Shown here piece by piece: positions 289 to 18,752 of a stretch of DNA of 20,000 nucleotides. The stretch's first letter is position 1. Each line of letters opens with the position of its first letter. The position numbers and the translations under genes were made by a program. The DNA comes from an uncultured virus (IMG/VR IMGVR_UViG_3300025936_000003) (Duplodnaviria > Heunggongvirae > Uroviricota > Caudoviricetes): IMG/VR virus record IMGVR_UViG_3300025936_000003, one strand, 5' to 3'. The notes under the pieces were generated by a model. That model searched no databases. It was not told the DNA's origin and worked only from the letters and a program-made list of their open reading frames with translations.

Positions 289-458
289 TGAATACCTTCG
301 ACATCTTACTCCTTTTGTTCGCGGGACTGATAATACTGCCCATCATGACTTACATGGTGGTGAAATTTGGTGCGGCCGGCTATTTTAGGGCGCGCCGCAG
401 AGAACAGAACAGACAAAACACCGAGAAAGGAAACCTAAATGAGTCGTGCCAAAAGTGA
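288..458 (+). CDS. Small single-pass membrane protein, 56 aa (not in ORF track)
   Basis: ATG at 288 overlaps the upstream TAA (TAATG). Translation MNTFDILLLLFAGLIILPIMTYMVVKFGAAGYFRARRREQNRQNTEKGNLNESCQK ends at TGA 456-458: a hydrophobic helix followed by a basic patch. Confidence 0.65.
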   Translation: MNTFDILLLLFAGLIILPIMTYMVVKFGAAGYFRARRREQNRQNTEKGNLNESCQK

Positions 459-1752
459 AAAACGGCGTTACACGAACGCCCGGGAGCAGGCGAACAAGCA
501 ATCGCTGGGCTTTGTTCCTGCATACCTAAAGCTGCCGAAGGGTGCCAGCCTCTTCAAACCCAAAGCAGGGGTCATGCTCTTGGATATACTGCCCTTCGAA
601 GCAGGCAAGGGCAATCCAAATGCAGACGAAGGGATGCTACACTGGGAGAGGACTTTCAGTGCCCACCGCGGCATCGGAGCCAACAGTGACAGTTTCCTCT
701 GCCCGCGACTGCTAAACAAGAAGCCGTGTCCCATCTGCGAACACCGCCTTCACCTGGTGAAGGCCGGGGACGAGGACGACGAGGATCTCATCAAGGATCT
801 CTCGCCGAAGACCCGTCAGCTGTTCAACGTCATCAACCTCAAGGATCCGGACAAGGGAGTTCAGATTTGGGACATGTCCTACTTCCTGTTCGGCGAGACG
901 CTTTACAAGCGGCTGCGGGATGCCGACGAGGGCGACGAGTGGGAGAACTTCTTCTTCCTAGAGGGCGGGCTAACACTAAAGATCGGCTTCAGTGAGCGGT
1001 CCTTTGGTGGTGCATCCTTCCACGAGGTGGACACCATCGACTTCAAGCCTCGCAAGCGGGATTACGATGACGACATCCTGGAGCAGGTTCACGTCCTGGA
1101 CGACTTACTTGTCGTTCCTGAGTATGACGAGCTCAAAGAGACCTTCCTTGAGACTACCGAGGACGAACCCAAGAAGGGCAAGCGCAGCAAGGACGATGAT
1201 GATGACGATGATGATGAACCAAAGTCAAAACGCCGTCATGCAGACGATGATGACGATGATGATGATGACGATGATGACGAGCCCAAGGGCAAAAAGCGTC
1301 ATGCAGACGATGACGATGACGATGATGACGATGATGAACCCAAGGGCAAGAAAGCAGCTCGCAACGGGGACGATGACGATGACGATGAGGTTGACGAGCC
1401 GAAGAAAAAGTCCTCCAAGGCTGACGACGACGATGACGACGATGACGATGATGAACCCAAGGGCAAGAAAAAGACTCCCAGTGACGATGACGACGACTGG
1501 GATGACGTAGATGACGATGATGACGATGAGCCCAAGGGCAAAAAGAAGCCGGCCGATGACGACGATGATGATTCGGACGACGATGACGATGAGCCCAAGG
1601 ACAAGAAAAAGAAGAACCAGTTCGCCAAGCAGAAGGGCGACAAGGGCTGGGACAAGGACGATGACGATGATGACGATGACGAGCCTAAAAAGAAGAAAAA
1701 GGTCGCCGCGTCCGCCGATGACGACGATGATTCGGACGACGATGACGACTGA
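439..1752 (+). CDS. gp32-like single-stranded DNA-binding protein with very long acidic/basic tail
   Basis: SD GAAAGGA upstream. Contains H...CP...CPICE Zn-type ligands, RQLFNVINLKDPDKGVQIW and a GLTLKI motif as in T4 gp32-like SSBs, plus an acidic C-terminus. It sits between the UvsY-like and RecA-like genes. Confidence 0.8.
   Translation: MSRAKSEKRRYTNAREQANKQSLGFVPAYLKLPKGASLFKPKAGVMLLDILPFEAGKGNPNADEGMLHWERTFSAHRGIGANSDSFLCPRLLNKKPCPICEHRLHLVKAGDEDDEDLIKDLSPKTRQLFNVINLKDPDKGVQIWDMSYFLFGETLYKRLRDADEGDEWENFFFLEGGLTLKIGFSERSFGGASFHEVDTIDFKPRKRDYDDDILEQVHVLDDLLVVPEYDELKETFLETTEDEPKKGKRSKDDDDDDDDEPKSKRRHADDDDDDDDDDDDEPKGKKRHADDDDDDDDDDEPKGKKAARNGDDDDDDEVDEPKKKSSKADDDDDDDDDDEPKGKKKTPSDDDDDWDDVDDDDDDEPKGKKKPADDDDDDSDDDDDEPKDKKKKNQFAKQKGDKGWDKDDDDDDDDEPKKKKKVAASADDDDDSDDDDD
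1165..1749 (+). repeat. Coding low-complexity tandem repeat: 9 x EPK + Lys-rich linker + poly-Asp (GAT/GAC runs)
   Basis: Nine EPK units are separated by Asp runs. DNA-level repeats include cgtcatgcagacgatga (twice) and gatgattcggacgacgatgacga (twice). Confidence 0.95.
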
Positions 1753-5022: not shown

Positions 5023-5614
5023 GGCCGCGAAGGGATCAGACTTCGAGCGCGAGTTGTGCAAGCGTCTCTCCTTGTGGTGGACAGATGGTGAGAGAAACGA
5101 TATATTTTGGCGCACCTCCCAATCAGGTGGGCGTGCTACCCAGAGGTCAAAGAAGGGAGAGACCACGTTTGGAAGCTACGGGGATCTGACAGCGATTGAC
5201 CCCATTGGCTCTCCACTCATTAAGATGTTCACGATCGAGTTGAAGCGTGGATCCTCATACGGCACGCCGGGTGACCTGCTCGACTTCAAACCAATCAATT
5301 CAAAGCACCCTTGGGTGGTGTGTCTCAAGCAAGCGATTCGTAGTCATGAACAAGCAGGTAGTCTCGCTTGGATGATGATTTGCAGACGAGACCATCGCCT
5401 GCCGATCGTGTATCTAGAAGCGAGGATCCTTAGGATGTTGAGAGGCGACAGCGGTCCAATATCAAGTGACTCCAATTTCGTGAAATTCTATTTGACCATT
5501 AAGCAGGAGTCCCTGGGATTCGACCGTATCTGCTTCACAGGGCTCCCACTAGAATCCTTCCTTGAATCCATTAGTCCCAAACAGATAATAAGAACGGTCA
5601 AAGGCTACAAATGA
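5015..5614 (+). CDS. Holliday junction resolvase, Hjc-like PD-(D/E)xK nuclease
   Basis: KGSDFERELCK, F.R...SGG, GDL and IELK motifs; recombination-module context. Confidence 0.8.
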   Translation: MPKAAKGSDFERELCKRLSLWWTDGERNDIFWRTSQSGGRATQRSKKGETTFGSYGDLTAIDPIGSPLIKMFTIELKRGSSYGTPGDLLDFKPINSKHPWVVCLKQAIRSHEQAGSLAWMMICRRDHRLPIVYLEARILRMLRGDSGPISSDSNFVKFYLTIKQESLGFDRICFTGLPLESFLESISPKQIIRTVKGYK

Positions 5615-5982
5615 GCAAACCCAAACTCAAAGCACTAGGGAAAAAAGTCACCAAGTTTGAGGGTCTGGAAGTATTCCCAGCCCCAAGCGGGATCCAGAGA
5701 GTCATCTGCACCTCCGATGAGGTGACTGCTCTGTGCCCGGTGACTGGACAGCCAGATTGGTACATCGTCAAGATCGACTACATCCCTCAAAAGCTCTGCG
5801 TTGAATCGAAAACACTCAAGCTCTACCTGCAATCCTTCCGGCAGCAAGGTCACTTTTGTGAAAGGTTCTCCAGCATCATTGCTCACCAGATCCTGAAGAC
5901 CCTCGAACCCTTGAAAGTGTCAGTCACAGTCACCCAGAAACCACGCGGCGGTATCGCCATCGAAGCCACCACCTGCTTATGA
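5611..5982 (+). CDS. queF: PreQ0 reductase QueF (unimodular T-fold)
   Basis: EVTALCPVTGQPD (catalytic Cys/Asp), QueF motif ESKTLKLYL and C-terminal PRGGI; adjacent to queC. Confidence 0.9.
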   Translation: MSKPKLKALGKKVTKFEGLEVFPAPSGIQRVICTSDEVTALCPVTGQPDWYIVKIDYIPQKLCVESKTLKLYLQSFRQQGHFCERFSSIIAHQILKTLEPLKVSVTVTQKPRGGIAIEATTCL

Positions 5983-6665
5983 AAAAAGTCTTAGTCCTCA
6001 CTTCGGGCGGAGTAGACAGCACCACACTCCTTTACCATCACGTTAAGGGAGGTGACGAAGTCCAAGCCATCGCTTTCAACTATGGCCAGCGGCACAGCAA
6101 AGAACTTGAATATGCTCATCTCAATGCGAACCTGTTGCAAGTCCCTTTCACACTGGTAGACGCATTATTCCTGGGGCGGATCTTGACCGGCAGCTCGCAG
6201 ACCGATGCATCGGTTCCCGTGCCGCAGGGTCACTACTCTGAAAACTCGATGAAGGCGACTGTCGTTCCCAACAGGAACATGATCCTCTTGTCCATCGCTA
6301 TCGGCGCCGCTATCGCAAAGAAGCTGGATTATGTCGCCTACGCTGCCCACGCGGGCGACCATGCCATCTACCCAGACTGCCGACCAGAGTTCGCCAGGGA
6401 CATGGGCAGGGTGGCAAGCAAGTGCGATTGGAGGCCCATAAAGCTCTTGAGGCCATTCGTCAAGATGAGCAAAGCCTGGATCATTGGTCACGGGAAAGAG
6501 TTGGGTGTGGACTATTCCAAAACCTGGAGTTGCTACGAGGGAGGCGCTTTGCACTGTGGCCGCTGTGGAACTTGTGTCGAACGGATTCTCTCCTTCAAAG
6601 AAGCGAAGGTTGACGACCCTACCACCTACCAAGATCCAGAGTTCGCAAAGCAATACGAGAAATGA
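5979..6665 (+). CDS. queC: 7-cyano-7-deazaguanine synthase QueC
   Basis: PP-loop SGGVDSTT, YGQRH..E, VPNRNMILLS, YPDCRPEF and Zn site TWSCY...HCGRCGTCVER. Confidence 0.96.
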   Translation: MKKVLVLTSGGVDSTTLLYHHVKGGDEVQAIAFNYGQRHSKELEYAHLNANLLQVPFTLVDALFLGRILTGSSQTDASVPVPQGHYSENSMKATVVPNRNMILLSIAIGAAIAKKLDYVAYAAHAGDHAIYPDCRPEFARDMGRVASKCDWRPIKLLRPFVKMSKAWIIGHGKELGVDYSKTWSCYEGGALHCGRCGTCVERILSFKEAKVDDPTTYQDPEFAKQYEK

Positions 6666-12058: not shown

Positions 12059-13036
12059 CTAGCGCCTCAATGTCCTTGTCCTGACGGTGCCGCTGTATCC
12101 TGAAGTTCCAGCCGCGTTCTGCGACAGCGTTCTGTATAAATAACTCGTGTCCCTTTTCAGACCTGTGTCCGCAAGGAAGCCGTCACCTGGCCGCGTTCCA
12201 ACCTGCGCGAATGAACGACCGTCACGTGACCTCTCGATCAACACCGTCCATGCCTGTGAATCCCAACTCACGTCAATCCGAGACGTGCTCACCGGAACCG
12301 CCCGAAGCCCAGACGGCGGCAGCGGCGCGGTCGGTGGCGCATTGGTACCAACCGTGAATAAGGTGAACGTGCTCGCCGTCCAGGTGCCCTGGTTATCTTT
12401 GACGACGATATAGGCCGACCATTGGCCATTCGTCGGCAAGGCCACCCAAGTCCCGTTGATACCTAAAGCAGTGTTCCCTTTGAGTGTCTGCGGCGTGATG
12501 GGAACTAGATCAACATGAGGACCGTCGGCTCTCGTGCCTCCAGGTGGGAGCAGTGTGAGCGCGCCGTCAACCAACATCAAATCGCCCGCGCCGTCATTGC
12601 GGATCACCGCGCCGATGTTCACCGACGATCCCACCGTCACGTTGGTCGTGCTCATAGTCGGTGGAACGAGTGTCAGTATCGGACTTGGTGACGGCACTGG
12701 CGGCGGGACGTTGGTGTAGACATTGCTCTGAAAACTCTCGGCCGTCTGGCCGTTCTTCGTTTCATAGGCCGTGAGTGTGAAAACCATTTCAAGATTGGTG
12801 CTCACCTGCACCGTTGCGTTGGTCTGTGTATTCGGCATTGACACTACCACTCCCCAGGGCCACGGCGGATTGCCCGTCGCGGAGTATAACCTCTGTCCCG
12901 TGACGTTCGTTAACGGGGTTGGGCTTAGGTTCCACACCAGGTTGACCGTTTCGCCCATTGCGTTTGGGTACCAGTTGAACGAACTTACCATACCAAGAAG
13001 CGCCAGCCACAGTGATAAACGGCTCTGTTGCCCCAC
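12059..13036 (-). CDS. Exported FN3/Ig-like repeat protein
   Basis: Hydrophobic segment RLSLWLALLGMVSS followed by ETVNLVWN. Pro-rich linkers, an Ig-like middle domain and a C-terminal FN3 (PSGLRA..VSTSRIDVSW...IERS.DG..F...DTGL...T.Y.YR..SQN.AG.S.YS). Start uncertain: GTG 13036 preferred, ORF extends to 13162. Confidence 0.75.
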   Translation of the reverse strand: MGQQSRLSLWLALLGMVSSFNWYPNAMGETVNLVWNLSPTPLTNVTGQRLYSATGNPPWPWGVVVSMPNTQTNATVQVSTNLEMVFTLTAYETKNGQTAESFQSNVYTNVPPPVPSPSPILTLVPPTMSTTNVTVGSSVNIGAVIRNDGAGDLMLVDGALTLLPPGGTRADGPHVDLVPITPQTLKGNTALGINGTWVALPTNGQWSAYIVVKDNQGTWTASTFTLFTVGTNAPPTAPLPPSGLRAVPVSTSRIDVSWDSQAWTVLIERSRDGRSFAQVGTRPGDGFLADTGLKRDTSYLYRTLSQNAAGTSGYSGTVRTRTLRR

Positions 13037-13178
13037 GCCGTTCTCGAAGCCTGATCCGCTGGCCGGTTTGCTGGTCGAAGAACTGAACGCGCCATCGGAT
13101 TCTCTGATTGTTGATGACATTGGCGTTGAGTGGTGAGGAGCCGTCGAATGGTCGGAATTCATAAAACCCAGGGATCAT
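12789..13178 (-). CDS. Possible hypothetical protein overlapping the FN3 gene (129 aa)
   Basis: Starts 10 nt after the upstream stop and fills an otherwise unexplained gap. The first ~45 codons have protein-like composition with C-ending codons (TTC GAC, ATC AAC, ACC GGC). Confidence 0.45.
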   Translation of the reverse strand: MIPGFYEFRPFDGSSPLNANVINNQRIRWRVQFFDQQTGQRIRLRERRGATEPFITVAGASWYGKFVQLVPKRNGRNGQPGVEPKPNPVNERHGTEVILRDGQSAVALGSGSVNAEYTDQRNGAGEHQS

Positions 13179-13188
13179 TTTTCATAGG

Positions 13189-13326
13189 TTATGTTGCCAG
13201 GTTTCCCAAGCCAAGCCACTCGGCAAACTTTATTGCGGCTGCAACCACGACCGTCATCACCACTGCAATGACCAATATGCCAATGGCTACAGTCGTCCAA
13301 TCCCAATCAGGTTGCTTGTCGTTCAT
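13189..13326 (-). CDS. Small single-pass membrane protein (45 aa)
   Basis: ATGA overlap at 13323-13326. MNDKQPDWDWTTVAIGILVIAVVMTVVVAAAIKFAEWLGLGNLAT. Confidence 0.65.
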   Translation of the reverse strand: MNDKQPDWDWTTVAIGILVIAVVMTVVVAAAIKFAEWLGLGNLAT

Positions 13327-14168
13327 GGTAGCGTCGTCACCCGGACCTTGTGCCAGTTCGTGTAAAGATTGCCGCACTCCGTGGCAGTCAGCTCGCGCGA
13401 GTAAATCAGGAGCGACTCCAAGTTGCCCAGGAAGAATTGTGTCGTCCCACCAAAGGAGCCGATCACGTTGATACCAATGTCGGCCACCAACGCCGTGGCC
13501 GGGTTCCCAATATCCGAGATATTCTGCCGAAATTGGGCCTTGTTCCCCGACGAGTAACGAAAGAATCCGACGCCAGCATTTGTGCCAGAGAAACTGTTCG
13601 GGTTCGACGATGGGAAGGCTGTCCCGTCATACTCGAACCACTGGGCCCCTGGAGTGTCAATCCTGATTCCTCCAGCACCCGCCCCTGTTTTACTAATTAG
13701 ATATTTCGTGCCTGAACCGCCGTTGTAGGACCAGAGCCCAATCACCGTGAAACCGCTGGTTATACTGAGCGTGATCGTGTTGCTGATGCTGAGCGTGTCC
13801 GTAGTCCCATCAAAAACCAAAGCGGGTTTTGCCCCTGCTGCGTTGGTTCTCCAGGTCGGCCTCGCTGTACCTGATGCTGTGGCGACGTTTCCAGACTTCA
13901 GATCGACCCAAGTAGAGACTGGGTCACCGTCGTTCAGGGTTGTGATCGAATCTGCTGTCCAGATATACACCAGTCCTGAGATCGTGTTTGGGTATCCAAT
14001 TGGATCAGACGCCGCTGAGCCACCTAGCTTCATGCGTGGTCCAGGCACGATTGTCGTTGACGCCTGAACCGTTCCGATCCTTTGCGGCAACCAAGTCTCC
14101 GGCACACTGACGATGATTGTGCTGGCCAGAGTGCAAACCGCAAAGAACTTGACGAATGGATTCTTCAT
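13323..14168 (-). CDS. Signal-peptide protein with LamG/concanavalin-A-like lectin domain
   Basis: N-terminal MKNPFVKFFAVCTLASTIIVSV, then W.AD.I....G..V..W.D, P.W, FDGT.D.L and F.G......IYSREL motifs typical of phage LamG-like domains. Confidence 0.75.
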   Translation of the reverse strand: MKNPFVKFFAVCTLASTIIVSVPETWLPQRIGTVQASTTIVPGPRMKLGGSAASDPIGYPNTISGLVYIWTADSITTLNDGDPVSTWVDLKSGNVATASGTARPTWRTNAAGAKPALVFDGTTDTLSISNTITLSITSGFTVIGLWSYNGGSGTKYLISKTGAGAGGIRIDTPGAQWFEYDGTAFPSSNPNSFSGTNAGVGFFRYSSGNKAQFRQNISDIGNPATALVADIGINVIGSFGGTTQFFLGNLESLLIYSRELTATECGNLYTNWHKVRVTTLP

Positions 14169-15646
14169 TGTGTGCTCCCATAACTGATGACGAGGGGTCC
14201 TGAAAAGCTGACGGCTGTGCTGGCATCAGACCCATCCCTGGCCAACCTGATCGTCCACATCTGGCCAGCCGTGACGTTGCTGTTCCAGTTCGTGAGGACA
14301 ACGTTGCTGATAGTTTCCACGTCGCCTGATGCGCCCGAAGCGTCACCGGCAAACGAGAGTGTGACCGAAGTGCTCAATGACGGCGAGTCGTAGGGGTTGC
14401 TGTCCGCATCGCTTTTCATCGTGAGGACGTAGGAGTGCGCCGCCGTGTCCGCTGCGCCAAGGCGAAACTTGAACCGTTCCACCTTAAGGTTAACTCCCGT
14501 ATCTATATCCTCAGGTACCGTCAGGCGATACTCGCAATAGTTGGTTGTGGTGGCTCCAGCCGACGCGAATATGACCTGACCGAAAGTGGCAGCCGTGTTG
14601 GTCGTATTGAAGACAGCTCCCGTGCCCTCGACTGAATGAGGCGAGGGAAAGACGAGGTAGTTCTTGGTCTTGAGCGAGTGACTGCCGCCGTCTGCCGTGG
14701 TCTGAATCGTTCCAAATCTCGCGGCAGCGAGTGTGCCGCTGGATAGATCGCCGGCGCTTCGCGTGTCCAAGTCAGCCAAGCTACTCCCCGTCTTGCTGAC
14801 CTTTGACCAGCCTATCGCCGCGCTGGCGCTGATCTGCGCGTTCGCCAAGTTCGTCGGGTTAACGGTGAGGTTGGTTGTGCCGCTGACCCCCACGACGGCA
14901 GTGCTGGAGTCCTGTAAGTTGGCAATGGGCATCTCCGTTCCATTGGCGCTGAAAACGGTCGCGGCTTTGCCGTTAACCTTGATCGTGTTGCTGACGTTGA
15001 CCACTGAGACGTTCTGGGTGGTGACGTTGATCGTGGTGGCATAAAGGTTCGTGATGAATACATCAGAAAAGTTGGTTGACCACGCCAATACCCCATTTGA
15101 GACGACCAGGACAAACCCCTCGGAGCCCATCGGGAACCTCCGCAAATGGGACCCGTCATAGTAGAACAAATCTCCCGCCGATCCGACGATCGCCCCAAGG
15201 TCTTTGACGAGCGCCGGGAAACGGTTTGTGTCCAGGGTGCCGCTGGTAATCTTTGACGCAGCGAGCGAAGGGATATCCGCTGCCACCAAAGCACGCAAAC
15301 TGGAAGCTCCCGTCATACCATCAGGAGTAGCAAGGACTTGGTTCGCCGACTGCCCGGTGGCAGCCGTGACTGCAAAGGTACCACTTGAGGTGATTGAGCT
15401 CGGCGATACGGACAGCCAAGAAGGAACAGTCATACCTACACTCGTCACCGTCCCAACTCCTCCCGCTGTGCTGTCGACGTATCCCTTGGTGGCAAGGTCG
15501 CCAGACAGAGTAGGTGTTGCTGCGTTGGTGGCTTTGAATCCACCCATGTTCAGATCGCTTTGCAGCTTCCCATTGTTGATGAGAAAGGGAGTCACAGCGG
15601 CGAAAGCCAATAACGGGAAAAGGAATATCAATAGAATCTTTTTCAT
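14165..15646 (-). CDS. Tail-fibre-like protein carrying a classical Sec signal peptide (493 aa)
   Basis: MKKILLIFLFPLLAFA signal peptide; fibre motifs PT.SGDLATKGYVD, GTVTSVG, LVAADIPSLAASKITSGTL and GDLFYYDG...W; beta-rich C-terminal domain. Confidence 0.75.
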   Translation of the reverse strand: MKKILLIFLFPLLAFAAVTPFLINNGKLQSDLNMGGFKATNAATPTLSGDLATKGYVDSTAGGVGTVTSVGMTVPSWLSVSPSSITSSGTFAVTAATGQSANQVLATPDGMTGASSLRALVAADIPSLAASKITSGTLDTNRFPALVKDLGAIVGSAGDLFYYDGSHLRRFPMGSEGFVLVVSNGVLAWSTNFSDVFITNLYATTINVTTQNVSVVNVSNTIKVNGKAATVFSANGTEMPIANLQDSSTAVVGVSGTTNLTVNPTNLANAQISASAAIGWSKVSKTGSSLADLDTRSAGDLSSGTLAAARFGTIQTTADGGSHSLKTKNYLVFPSPHSVEGTGAVFNTTNTAATFGQVIFASAGATTTNYCEYRLTVPEDIDTGVNLKVERFKFRLGAADTAAHSYVLTMKSDADSNPYDSPSLSTSVTLSFAGDASGASGDVETISNVVLTNWNSNVTAGQMWTIRLARDGSDASTAVSFSGPLVISYGSTQ

Positions 15647-16493: not shown

Positions 16494-17600
16494 TCATTTG
16501 ATGGCGAAGAAAGCTGAGAAGGTTGAACCATTCGGAGGGTCCGACTGAACATCCACGAAGCCATCATATTTGGTGGCGATCGTCCTCACCGTCGATAGTC
16601 CAATACCTGATCCCTTACCAACAGGCTTGGTGCTGAAGAAGGTCTCAAACATCTTCCCCATCACTTCAGGGGGCACCCCGCTGCCGTCATCCCTAACAGA
16701 AATCTTGACGAACTTGCCTGTGTATAAAAAACCACCCACGTTAGGTTTGTAATCTCGGATGTCAACATCTTCAGCTCTCACCTCAAGATGAGTGGCCCCG
16801 GCATCCTTTGAGTTGATACAGAAATTCAGAATGACTTGACGGATGACAGTTGGGTCAATCGCAATCACCGCTTCTGTCGTGACCTTAGAAGTGATCGTGG
16901 CTGTGGGGATGATACCAGGAAGGAATTGAATAAATTCTAAAACGACCTGGCGCATTGAAACATTCTCTTTGTGCCCGTTCCTCCCGGACACGAAAAGCAT
17001 CATCCTGTCAATCATCGCGACGATCCTATCGGCCGATCGCTGAGCCCCCTTGAGGAGTCCCATCTGGGCCTCAGGAACGTATCTCTCAAAAAGGTGGAGA
17101 ATCCCCATGATAGGAGTGAGCATGTTTCGCATGTCATGGGCAAGACCTGAAGCCACTTCTCCTACCGCTGCCTGGCGCTGAGCCTCCAGAGCGATGCTCT
17201 GAGCTTCCAGAGCCTCTCTCTGCGATTGCTGCAAGTTTCTCAATCTCTCTCGATCACGAATAGCCCGGCGGATTGCCCAGCGCAGACGGTGAGGACGATC
17301 CTTCAGCATCACGTCATCAATGTCCTGTGCCTCCAAAGGCGGAATCATATCATCGGTGATGGTTCCTGAAAAGATCAGGACAGGGATTTCGGGCCACTTC
17401 TTGCGTGCTTCGACGGCAGCGGCAATCCCACTCCAACCTGGAATGGCATAGTCCAAGACAAGAATATCGAAAGGTCCCTTATCCAGTGCCTCACTGAATT
17501 CCGTCTTATTCTTAGCCACAACCAATTCAGCCCCCTCAGGCATAAAGCGCCCAGTGAGAACGACATCAAAGTCGGCATCCTCCAGCAATAGTATTCTCAT
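16494..17600 (-). CDS. Hybrid histidine kinase (receiver-HisKA-HATPase), no sensor domain
   Basis: Receiver: RILLLED, LVLDYAIPG (phospho-Asp), IFSG, LKD. H-box LAHDMRNMLTPI, N-box QVILNFCINSKDA, G1 DDGSG, F/G2 FETFFSTKPVGKGSGIGL, and GSTF. Confidence 0.95.
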   Translation of the reverse strand: MRILLLEDADFDVVLTGRFMPEGAELVVAKNKTEFSEALDKGPFDILVLDYAIPGWSGIAAAVEARKKWPEIPVLIFSGTITDDMIPPLEAQDIDDVMLKDRPHRLRWAIRRAIRDRERLRNLQQSQREALEAQSIALEAQRQAAVGEVASGLAHDMRNMLTPIMGILHLFERYVPEAQMGLLKGAQRSADRIVAMIDRMMLFVSGRNGHKENVSMRQVVLEFIQFLPGIIPTATITSKVTTEAVIAIDPTVIRQVILNFCINSKDAGATHLEVRAEDVDIRDYKPNVGGFLYTGKFVKISVRDDGSGVPPEVMGKMFETFFSTKPVGKGSGIGLSTVRTIATKYDGFVDVQSDPPNGSTFSAFFAIK

Positions 17601-17929
17601 TTTAAGTGCCCCTCTGGATCTACCTGAGATTTCCTCAGCAGATCTGTTGCATCCCTATCCCGCTTCCCCTCCCTCCATGTATTGAATGCTTTGCTCCTAA
17701 ATCCACCTAATGCTGTGAGTGCCGCAACACCACAATCACAAATGATCAGAATGGACCAGCTGGCAAAGGTGGTATCTCCTGCCTTCACCAGAGCGAGGGC
17801 TCCCACCTTCAAACAGATTAAGGTGGGACACAGAACTGAGATTGCCCCATCAATGACCATAGGAGTCAGATGAGGCAGCTCCCTACGAATGATTTCTGTT
17901 ACATGGCCCATAAGAAAAGGTTCTGTCAC
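17597..17929 (-). CDS. Small two-TM membrane protein, holin-like (110 aa)
   Basis: Two hydrophobic segments and a charged C-tail. GTG start with an AGAGGG SD; alternative ATG at 17911. Its stop overlaps the kinase ATG (ATGA). Confidence 0.55.
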   Translation of the reverse strand: MTEPFLMGHVTEIIRRELPHLTPMVIDGAISVLCPTLICLKVGALALVKAGDTTFASWSILIICDCGVAALTALGGFRSKAFNTWREGKRDRDATDLLRKSQVDPEGHLK

Positions 17930-18033
17930 CGTTACCCTCTACAGGAGGGAACTGACAACGGGAAACGATACTCTAGGAAAACTGAACGTGAAAACCAGAG
18001 TACCAAAACCATTAGTCCAGTCCGGTGACAGAA
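17921..18033 (-). ncRNA. Putative cis-regulatory three-way-junction RNA occluding the SD and start codon
   Basis: Perfect 11-bp inverted repeat (17921-17931 / 18023-18033) encloses a long G-U-rich hairpin and a CCCUC/GAGGG hairpin. Confidence 0.65.
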
Positions 18034-18038
18034 GTTGT

Positions 18039-18221
18039 TCACAACGGATCTCGAGGTTGAGCTTCAGGCTTCGAGAAGACCTCCTTCTCGTGTGCTTGGT
18101 AGGCTGCTTCACCTTCCGGAGTCAGTTCTCCGTTCTTCCTCAGGGTGTCCACCCACGATGGGGCGTTGCGGAGGATCCAACGGGCCGTTTCCAGCAGTGC
18201 GAGTAATTCAGCTTCTTTCAT
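18039..18221 (-). CDS. Small hypothetical protein (60 aa)
   Basis: ATGA overlap with the lipoprotein gene; amphipathic helical sequence. Confidence 0.7.
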   Translation of the reverse strand: MKEAELLALLETARWILRNAPSWVDTLRKNGELTPEGEAAYQAHEKEVFSKPEAQPRDPL

Positions 18222-18676
18222 GGTACCTTCGCTTTCCTTGTGGCTTCTGCCAGGTGTTTAGATGCGGATAGCAAAGCATCGTCTACGAGTTTCAGCGCCG
18301 CCTTCAACTTATCCCCGTTGGTGGCACTCCTTTCCTTTTGGTAGTCGGCGATGGCCGCCGACAACTCATCCAACCACTTCGGCCCGTTCCTGCGAACCTC
18401 CTCAGCCGCTTTGTGGATACCAGGACTGAGTGCTTTGAGGGTCTCTTCGTTGTGAGCCTCAATCGTCATCAGTCCGTCGAATACATCCAGCGCGATCTTG
18501 CGGGTGTTCTGCGCGGTGACTACGAGCACGTCGGCCATCTCATTCGTGTTGTAGACCCCTGTGGAGGGGTTGTATTGACCCTTTCCAGCAAGACACCCGC
18601 TGTTACATCCAGCGATTGTCAACGCCATGACTACGATCACGAGACCTCCCATGATCCGTTGTTTGATTTGTTTCAT
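18218..18676 (-). CDS. Helical lipoprotein (152 aa), possibly lysis/spanin-associated
   Basis: GAAAGG SD; basic n-region, hydrophobic h-region and lipobox TIAG-C; mostly helical mature part. Confidence 0.75.
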   Translation of the reverse strand: MKQIKQRIMGGLVIVVMALTIAGCNSGCLAGKGQYNPSTGVYNTNEMADVLVVTAQNTRKIALDVFDGLMTIEAHNEETLKALSPGIHKAAEEVRRNGPKWLDELSAAIADYQKERSATNGDKLKAALKLVDDALLSASKHLAEATRKAKVP

Positions 18677-18752
18677 TTCAGCCTTTCTGTTGATGGTTGA
18701 CTCAACACGGATCTAACCTAACGGAACTTCCAAGAGATAGCTAGAAGAAAAA

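Follow-up and report, generated by a model that had tools for sequence, protein, structure and literature searches.

A conserved phage unit couples a receiver-controlled histidine kinase to a small membrane protein gene

The final 20 kb of the 77,034-bp genome of an uncultured phage (G000; we call this whole stretch of 20,000 nucleotides the window) encode a complete histidine kinase that is headed by a receiver domain and coupled to the gene for a two-helix membrane protein (Table 1). Comparisons of gene order and protein sequence across related loci indicate that this kinase unit is real and conserved in phages. It sits between two virion-structural genes (phrog_384) and is co-oriented with the tail genes, as a first-pass annotation of the DNA had recorded. 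A search of titles and abstract openings, mainly in the open literature, returned no account of a phage late unit in which a receiver-controlled kinase is coupled to a membrane gene.

Table 1. Features of the kinase unit and its upstream neighbours, in window coordinates.
Feature	Position	Strand	Evidence
Rec-controlled histidine kinase (REC-DHp-CA), 368 aa	16494..17600	-	Pfam, alignments, model, fold match, dN/dS
Two-helix membrane protein of an unnamed family, 104 aa, basic cytoplasm-type C tail	17597..17911	-	Homologs, hydropathy, model
Structured RNA leader	17921..18033	-	Folding z, compensatory changes
60-aa protein, amphipathic N-terminal helix, no transmembrane segment	18039..18221	-	ORF, hydropathy maximum 0.6
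Predicted 152-aa lipoprotein, signal peptide and lipobox C24, no C-terminal anchor	18218..18676	-	Sequence, hydropathy
11-nt hairpin-loop motif, candidate late start or processing site	18693..18703	-	RNA contig ends, exact copies

The G000 contig carries a 127-bp terminal repeat, and its record is classed as a complete virus. It belongs to a tailed phage, with portal, capsid, tail tube and tip genes and a tape-measure-sized ORF. The phage also has a DNA polymerase gene of its own and a sigma-like gene, and none of the scanned ORFs was identified as an integrase. The stretch is held by 24 listed sequencing runs, and the 13 that contain at least half of its sampled words are rhizosphere or soil metagenomes, five of them flagged as possible sources; this habitat reading leaves out runs X21–X24, which hold a small share of the words. 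The host may be a member of the Verrucomicrobiota.

Several other genes of the phage deserve mention. Genes of the 7-deazaguanine pathway (QueF, QueC, QueD, a QueE-like radical SAM protein, FolE and a tRNA-guanine transglycosylase-like protein) lie at window positions 5611–6665 and at G000:45118–47873, and the pathway probably serves DNA modification; QueF and QueC are present too in the sister phage G001. A glycosyltransferase and methyltransferase block between the head-morphogenesis and scaffold genes (G000:10150–14971) and a sialyltransferase-like gene in the head–tail module (G000:5184–5831) represent probable virion glycosylation. The large terminase gene (G000:50883–52355, plus strand) is located within the replication module, on the strand opposite to the head genes, as in G001, and a weak small-terminase match lies about 30 kb away from it. 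A small superinfection-immunity (Imm) membrane protein is encoded at G000:39145–39351 (plus strand), and a gp32-like single-strand binding protein, whose acidic and repetitive tail spans about 200 residues, at window positions 439–1752. The sister phage's family A DNA polymerase (L043:4644–6842) carries an intein with an HNH domain that is absent from the window's phage. Three tail-module proteins (window positions 12059–15646) have signal-peptide-like N termini; an FN3-like protein with such an N terminus is encoded directly upstream of the cassette in loci L007, L013 and G003, and Tat-like leaders were seen in L004 and L007. The tail module of the sister phage L004 contains a type IV pilin-like gene with an N-methylation motif (L004:11814–12182) where the window has an FN3-like gene, and a plasmid search returned no plasmid match for it.

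The kinase matches three Pfam families, Response_reg (E 2e-8), HisKA (5e-9) and HATPase_c (1e-16), and neither PAS nor GAF was matched in Pfam. Its peak 19-residue hydropathy, 1.6, falls inside the ATPase domain, and the structure model contains no membrane helix. The acidic pair, Asp, Ser/Thr and Lys of a Rec-controlled kinase (Rec-HK) are all present in the receiver (E7/D8/D50/S78/K100), as are intact H, N, G1, F and G2 boxes in the core (H155-D-x-x-N159, N263, D304-x-G306-x-G308, F318/F321 and G330-x-G332-x-G334-L335), and every one of these residues is kept in an alignment with three close homologs. Pfam, hydropathy, model and alignment thus agree with the earlier description of a complete receiver–HisKA–HATPase protein that lacks transmembrane, PAS and GAF input; the order Rec-DHp-CA with no sensory domain is the Rec-HK architecture. 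The continuous signalling helix of heptad-varying length that marks this class was also found: in the model (pLDDT 84), a single helix (residues 103–174) runs from the receiver into the DHp domain, and the distance from the receiver Lys to the His is 55, 48 or 41 residues, in steps of seven, in nine of 12 aligned kinases, the heptad step being broken in the other three (49, 37 and 37). The distance is 55 in the kinase of G003.

The best whole-chain PDB match of the model was LvrB of Leptospira, the prototype Rec-HK (8vc9, NF047466; E 3e-24). In Rec-controlled kinases, receiver phosphorylation is the input; in LvrB it draws the linker helices together into a coiled coil and releases the ATPase domain, linker lengths in its class favour multiples of seven, and LvrB acts on transcription through a downstream regulator (PMC13269768). 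Because the phage kinases fit this architecture and its heptad linker, the likely input is their receiver, and they need no sensor; by analogy, that input is likely to be phosphorylation by the host. Both proteins are sensorless Rec-DHp-CA kinases of similar length with one long receiver-to-DHp helix and a heptad-stepped linker, and both have a D-to-H spacing of 105 (D50/H155 in the phage kinase; D56/H161 in LvrB, PMC13269768). By contrast, the phage kinase is 21% identical to LvrB and scores 127 bits against the NF047466 cut-off of 500, and so is not an orthologue; it has Ala at the position of LvrB E150, and it is phage-encoded with no LvrA or LvrC partner, being coupled to a membrane gene instead. 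Its core groups with the PAS-bearing CckA-like hybrids P0006 and P0076, but, compared with CckA-type hybrids (NF046020, NF046026; PDB 5idj), the phage kinase has no PAS or transmembrane input and its clade has lost the C-terminal receiver that clade-B phage relatives retain. As a CckA equivalog it reaches 121 of 1000 bits, far under the cut-off. Equivalog identity with either protein was rejected on these scores and on the lack of a cognate partner, there being no other receiver in the genome. Judged by its sequence, then, the phage kinase is a Rec-HK by architecture and an orthologue of neither LvrB nor CckA.

The first-pass annotation had noted that no partner response regulator lies in the window. 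A whole-genome search (E ≤ 1) extended this to all of G000, in which no second receiver was found. Because G000 has no other two-component gene, we infer that the phosphate donor and acceptor must be host proteins, which upholds the earlier proposal that the kinase taps into host two-component signalling.

The kinase has a history within phages. Among 8,000 candidates scored, the best three proteins are 57–58% identical to it over their full length, and the next matches fall to 30–35% over two thirds of the length. One of the three belongs to L004 (57%), where the kinase occupies the same slot as in the window, flanked by a lipoprotein pair and by the same small tail gene. Against L004, pN is 0.27 and pS 0.74, giving a dN/dS of about 0.11 that is rough because dS is near saturation and that lies within the range of six neighbouring tail genes (0.06–0.28); core and receiver are each 58% identical, with dN/dS of 0.13 and 0.08, respectively. 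GC and GC3 match those of the tail genes. The best non-cassette relatives are 24–35% identical and the best bacterial matches about 35%; a GTDB scan with the close kinase alignment gave two loci at 28% identity, and 23 INPHARED records matched at 23–36%, none of them orthologous. One phage-collection locus, L083 (MW495066.1, 'Microcystis phage'), has its kinase among aspS, coaE and rnhC and looks like bacterial DNA. The relatives P0003 and P0005 have no genomic context of their own, although P0003 and the membrane homolog P0016 each come from a 4,525-bp contig. In a 38-row tree of kinase cores, which omits two partial kinases and 52 of 79 other matches and samples bacteria thinly, the cassette kinases form two clades (support 100/100, four rows; 100/99, seven rows), both inside a 96/87 group with two PAS-bearing CckA-type hybrids, and a single origin was recovered in 44% of bootstrap trees; a quick tree of 89 rows agrees. 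Because bacterial sampling is thin, we name no donor. Assembly across the locus is sound, in that L001, L003 and L005 match the genome at 99.99–100% across both kinase borders and four runs show no joint there. Two of the four outcomes that had been named at the outset as fatal to a phage role, recent capture (against which stand sister-phage synteny, dN/dS, the distance of bacterial matches and the phylogeny) and an assembly chimera, were therefore not borne out.

The kinase ATG overlaps the stop codon of the membrane gene (ATGA at 17597–17600), as had been reported. The membrane gene had been described as a 110-aa, two-transmembrane ORF; the two hydrophobic segments stand, and the length does not, as 110 aa is reached only from GTG 17929. 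Homologs start at a Met that matches ATG 17911, so the gene probably starts there and encodes 104 aa. The protein is modelled as a helical hairpin with an interhelix loop of about 5–7 residues, and three cysteines are at least 90% conserved in the close family, several distant relatives being without them. It has 23 homologs, 21 of them at 65–84% identity, and a profile adds about a dozen distant relatives. No match was found in Pfam, PHROGs or NCBIfam; in GTDB species genomes none of 12 pattern matches was confirmed, and the family was not found in INPHARED isolate phages.

We compared the loci that carry this membrane family. The search returned 22; L022–L025 were dropped before counting, as just 18–27 residues matched in unrelated genes, and near-identical copies such as L008 and L010 (equal length and coordinates) were merged, leaving 12 distinct loci including the window. 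The gene directly after the membrane gene begins with a receiver in all of these except L011. A kinase H box is visible in nine of the 11 receiver partners, one more breaks off after 73 residues, and L016 holds two bare receivers; the junction is an ATGA overlap in nine of the 11. The membrane family, 67–85% identical among its members, thus precedes two kinase clades that are about 27% alike, as well as bare receivers. Conversely, the L004 slot has a non-homologous membrane gene before the kinase, again with ATGA, and in the integrase-bearing phage G003 the tail region holds a receiver-kinase-receiver gene that no membrane gene precedes. These exchanges indicate that, at the level of gene content, the membrane and kinase partners are modular and interchangeable. 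Phage context is evident for the window, L004, G003 and L007/L009 (the last with an SU10-type portal and capsid); most other loci are too short to prove it. Scans with the L004 membrane gene and the tail gene downstream brought up no third phage of this group.

Next to the unit lie two further small genes, the start of the 60-aa gene overlapping the stop of the lipoprotein gene. A lipoprotein followed by a 60–70-aa protein adjoins the unit, on either side, in the window, L004, L007, L013 and L018, and similar small ORFs follow the lipoprotein in L004, L007, L013, L018 and L032. Lipoprotein homologs at 54–55% identity occur in L013 and L032, and the protein maps to unnamed, virus-dominated Atlas clusters (score 0.93–0.94). 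The synteny that the first pass had put forward for checking holds for the order of membrane gene and receiver gene and for the adjacent lipoprotein pair at these five loci, and is broken in L011 and in G003, where the pair lies about 16 kb from the kinase. In a spanin, the lipoprotein would either have a partner anchored in the inner membrane or carry a C-terminal membrane helix itself. Neither was found (hydropathy of the 60-aa protein peaks at 0.6 and lipoprotein C-terminal windows reach at most 0.6), nor was any family match, and on these predictions the pair has a non-spanin layout.

The structured RNA that had been proposed as part of the unit was supported by folding. Between the 60-aa gene and the membrane gene lie 113 nt that fold with a z of −4.57, with 0 of 200 shuffles folding as well, and form an 11-bp outer helix around a long stem plus a small hairpin. 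The leader stops 9 nt short of the membrane ATG; no Shine–Dalgarno-like site is visible before this codon, and Rfam gave no match to the leader at E ≤ 1. The L004 leader has the same layout (z −3.5), and in this comparison of two sequences all three outer-helix pairs that differ are double compensatory changes. Among the other 11 upstream regions, z was below −4 in two and not in nine. Leader, membrane gene and kinase hold up as a conserved phage unit, but because of those nine regions the leader is not universal. A scan of viral contigs for the covarying-helix pattern yielded five loci, two from this phage and three chance matches in unrelated contexts; it missed L004, whose span is one base over the allowed gap. 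In seven of 14 upstream regions (L011, L012, L014, L017, L019, L021 and L042; not the window or L004), a sigma70-like −35/extended −10 motif with 16-nt spacing, derived after the fact from the loci themselves, lies 7–11 nt before the start codon, a position that suggests leaderless or near-leaderless transcripts. Among 33 matches to this motif in viral contigs, only the known G003 leads to a receiver, kinase or membrane gene, and a consensus promoter/terminator scan was at chance level (1 versus 1.8 and 2 versus 2.6).

Two rhizosphere metatranscriptomes from the same year, possibly from one campaign, provide RNA contigs at 17696–18701 and 17889–18695, ends past which a DNA run continues to 18817, and a further RNA contig (17376–17685) bridges the membrane–kinase junction. 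These data are contigs with no strand or level, from runs chosen by presence of the stretch. Within the kinase, the listed RNA contigs reach just the first ~225 nt, at low depth, and, because contigs drop low-cover parts, low or absent cover over the rest does not amount to silence. Lack of expression had been named as a further outcome that would count against the phage unit; the two metatranscriptomes weakly contradict it, for the kinase over those ~225 nt. As a control stretch we used the capsid operon, whose long RNA contigs end at the same base, G000:9671, in both runs; there the RNA runs cover 15 and 9 of 30 bins and the DNA run 28. The 11-nt motif at the upstream end of the unit's contigs has its only other exact copy in the genome at G000:9663–9673, the upstream end of the capsid-operon contigs (two exact copies against 0.065 expected), and lies in a hairpin loop each time. 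It is kept at the sister phage's capsid site and absent at its cassette. Together these ends hint weakly at a separate late transcript for the unit.

Holins are typically small proteins with one to three membrane helices and a charged C tail, and the membrane protein, with its two hydrophobic helices and charged tail, is of this size and form. We tentatively favour a model in which the kinase, last in a phage unit that is probably expressed late, takes its input from a host kinase and gates the holin-like membrane protein and the timing of envelope breach; lysis-linked control is preferred because the two-helix protein, charged tail, structured leader, lipoprotein neighbour and late timing make up a holin-like anatomy. 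The base of the model is the kinase architecture, its intact motifs, the ATGA coupling, purifying selection and the absence of a phage partner receiver, and the end motif that the RNA contigs share with the capsid operon weakly points towards late expression. A host protein would phosphorylate D50, which, by analogy with LvrB, would zip the linker helices into a coiled coil and free the ATPase domain to phosphorylate H155, from which another host protein would accept the phosphate. The RNA leader may damp translation of the membrane gene, so that the coupled kinase would be made in step with it. The output, as the least certain step, could be to control membrane permeabilisation or lysis, by way of either the receiver of the kinase itself or a host single-domain receiver. 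A broader version seems to us possible yet doubtful: a phospho-gated lysis switch in which a host relay, through either a phage receiver-kinase or a bare receiver, is wired to the holin-like family and the non-spanin lipoprotein pair, such that the host's signalling state would set burst time in hosts with no recognisable known endolysin.

Holins lack conserved domains (PMC12642591). No holin family was matched by the membrane protein or its distant relatives in Pfam, PHROGs or NCBIfam, nor by the membrane protein in BFVD at E ≤ 0.001, and an Atlas holin lead scored 0.82, under the 0.9 bar. No endolysin family was recognised among the scanned ORFs of G000, a set that includes many ORFs without a family and part of the alternative frames, or among those of G001, G002 and G003, two of which are records about half complete. 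A lambda-type dual start was rejected: GTG 17929 is in frame, six codons ahead of ATG 17911, but most homologs lack the extension, and the corresponding GTG of L004 lies out of frame. Against lysis control, G003 has the kinase without the membrane gene and far from its lipoprotein pair, and, given the sigma70-like motif, the unit could be expressed apart from the late programme. We know of no kinase-to-holin mechanism. The holin–regulator systems T4 T/RI/RIII, N4 gp63/gp62 and lambda S105/S107 (PMC12642591) resemble the phage unit in having a small late membrane protein, a coupled putative regulator and a structured leader, whereas the phage unit shares no homology with them and has no adjacent endolysin or conserved dual start. 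The 'Receiver domain' of N4 gp63 is its authors' name for a mutation cluster and not a CheY-type domain, and the available text of that account describes no His-Asp chemistry for the T4, N4 or lambda regulators (PMC12642591).

Much of this evidence could also be read as a relay that rewires the host, an explanation that is credible but rather unlikely. Here the kinase would phosphorylate or dephosphorylate a host response regulator and so alter the envelope, the pili or receptors, or stress transcription, the membrane protein and lipoprotein serving as envelope effectors (for example, in superinfection exclusion) and not as lysis proteins. In HisKA kinases, the D-x-x-N motif that follows the His allows phosphatase activity, and this motif is intact. 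The lack of a recognised endolysin, the kinase without a membrane gene in G003, the promoter-like motif before half of the units, the pilin-like gene near the L004 unit and the action of LvrB on transcription through a downstream regulator (PMC13269768) are consistent with rewiring. However, the RNA ends point to co-expression with the capsid operon, which is late for transcriptional rewiring, a role that does not call for so close a coupling to a membrane gene as is seen at 11 of 12 loci, and the motif scan of viral contigs uncovered no further cassette except G003 itself.

A phosphate sink or decoy, in which the receiver is the working part that drains or jams a host phosphorelay for stress or defence and the kinase core is secondary, appears improbable. 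It would account for the two bare receivers of L016 and for the N-terminal receiver being the sole element common to all 11 partner genes, but core and receiver are equally conserved, every ATP-binding motif is retained and linker phase is kept in nine of 12 kinases. The first-pass annotation had suggested that the membrane protein could be a detached sensor, which would sense the membrane and switch the kinase by direct binding. Translational coupling and the conserved cysteines speak for this idea; it is nonetheless quite improbable because the partners are interchangeable (L004 swaps the membrane gene, G003 lacks one, and one membrane family precedes two distant kinase clades and bare receivers), and both the very short interhelix loop and the distant relatives that have no cysteines argue against it. 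Finally, histidine kinases are bacterial in origin and some phage-collection matches sit among bacterial housekeeping genes, but a recent capture, hitch-hiker or assembly chimera retains next to no probability and is already largely refuted by the intact borders, the shared slot in a sister phage at near-saturated dS, the remoteness of non-cassette and GTDB relatives, and tail-like GC and GC3.

Kinases carried by viruses have been described before. The agrC gene of C. difficile phage phiCDHM1 encodes a kinase with no cognate response regulator that is thought to plug into the host system (PMC6127314), a lack that it shares with the kinase reported here, and histidine kinases, some with MASE1 domains, also occur in Ectocarpus virus insertions (PMC6324907). 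Those are sensor kinases (peptide-sensing in the case of agrC) from a temperate phage or algal viruses (PMC6127314, PMC6324907), whereas the kinase of G000 is receiver-controlled, sensorless and part of a virion/late unit. According to the available text of PMC7824862, the divergent receivers of jumbo phages are not found together with kinases. Unnamed families of kinases and receivers are present in PHROGs.

The timing of lysis determines burst size. As far as the available text of PMC12642591 goes, described lysis regulators act by holin–antiholin contacts and not by His-Asp phosphorylation. If only host phosphorelay proteins feed the kinase and receive from it, the kinase would be a direct viral route to read or write host signalling late in infection, and, as it is small, soluble and complete, the switch is testable in vitro with no host at hand. 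No described family was matched by the membrane protein, the lipoprotein pair or the RNA leader, and these three are candidate parts of the lysis machinery that is missing in these soil phages. Should the output prove to be host rewiring, the kinases would still form a conserved, phage-specific branch of Rec-controlled kinases; if lysis control is the correct reading, the kinase may tie membrane breach and lysis timing to the state of the host.
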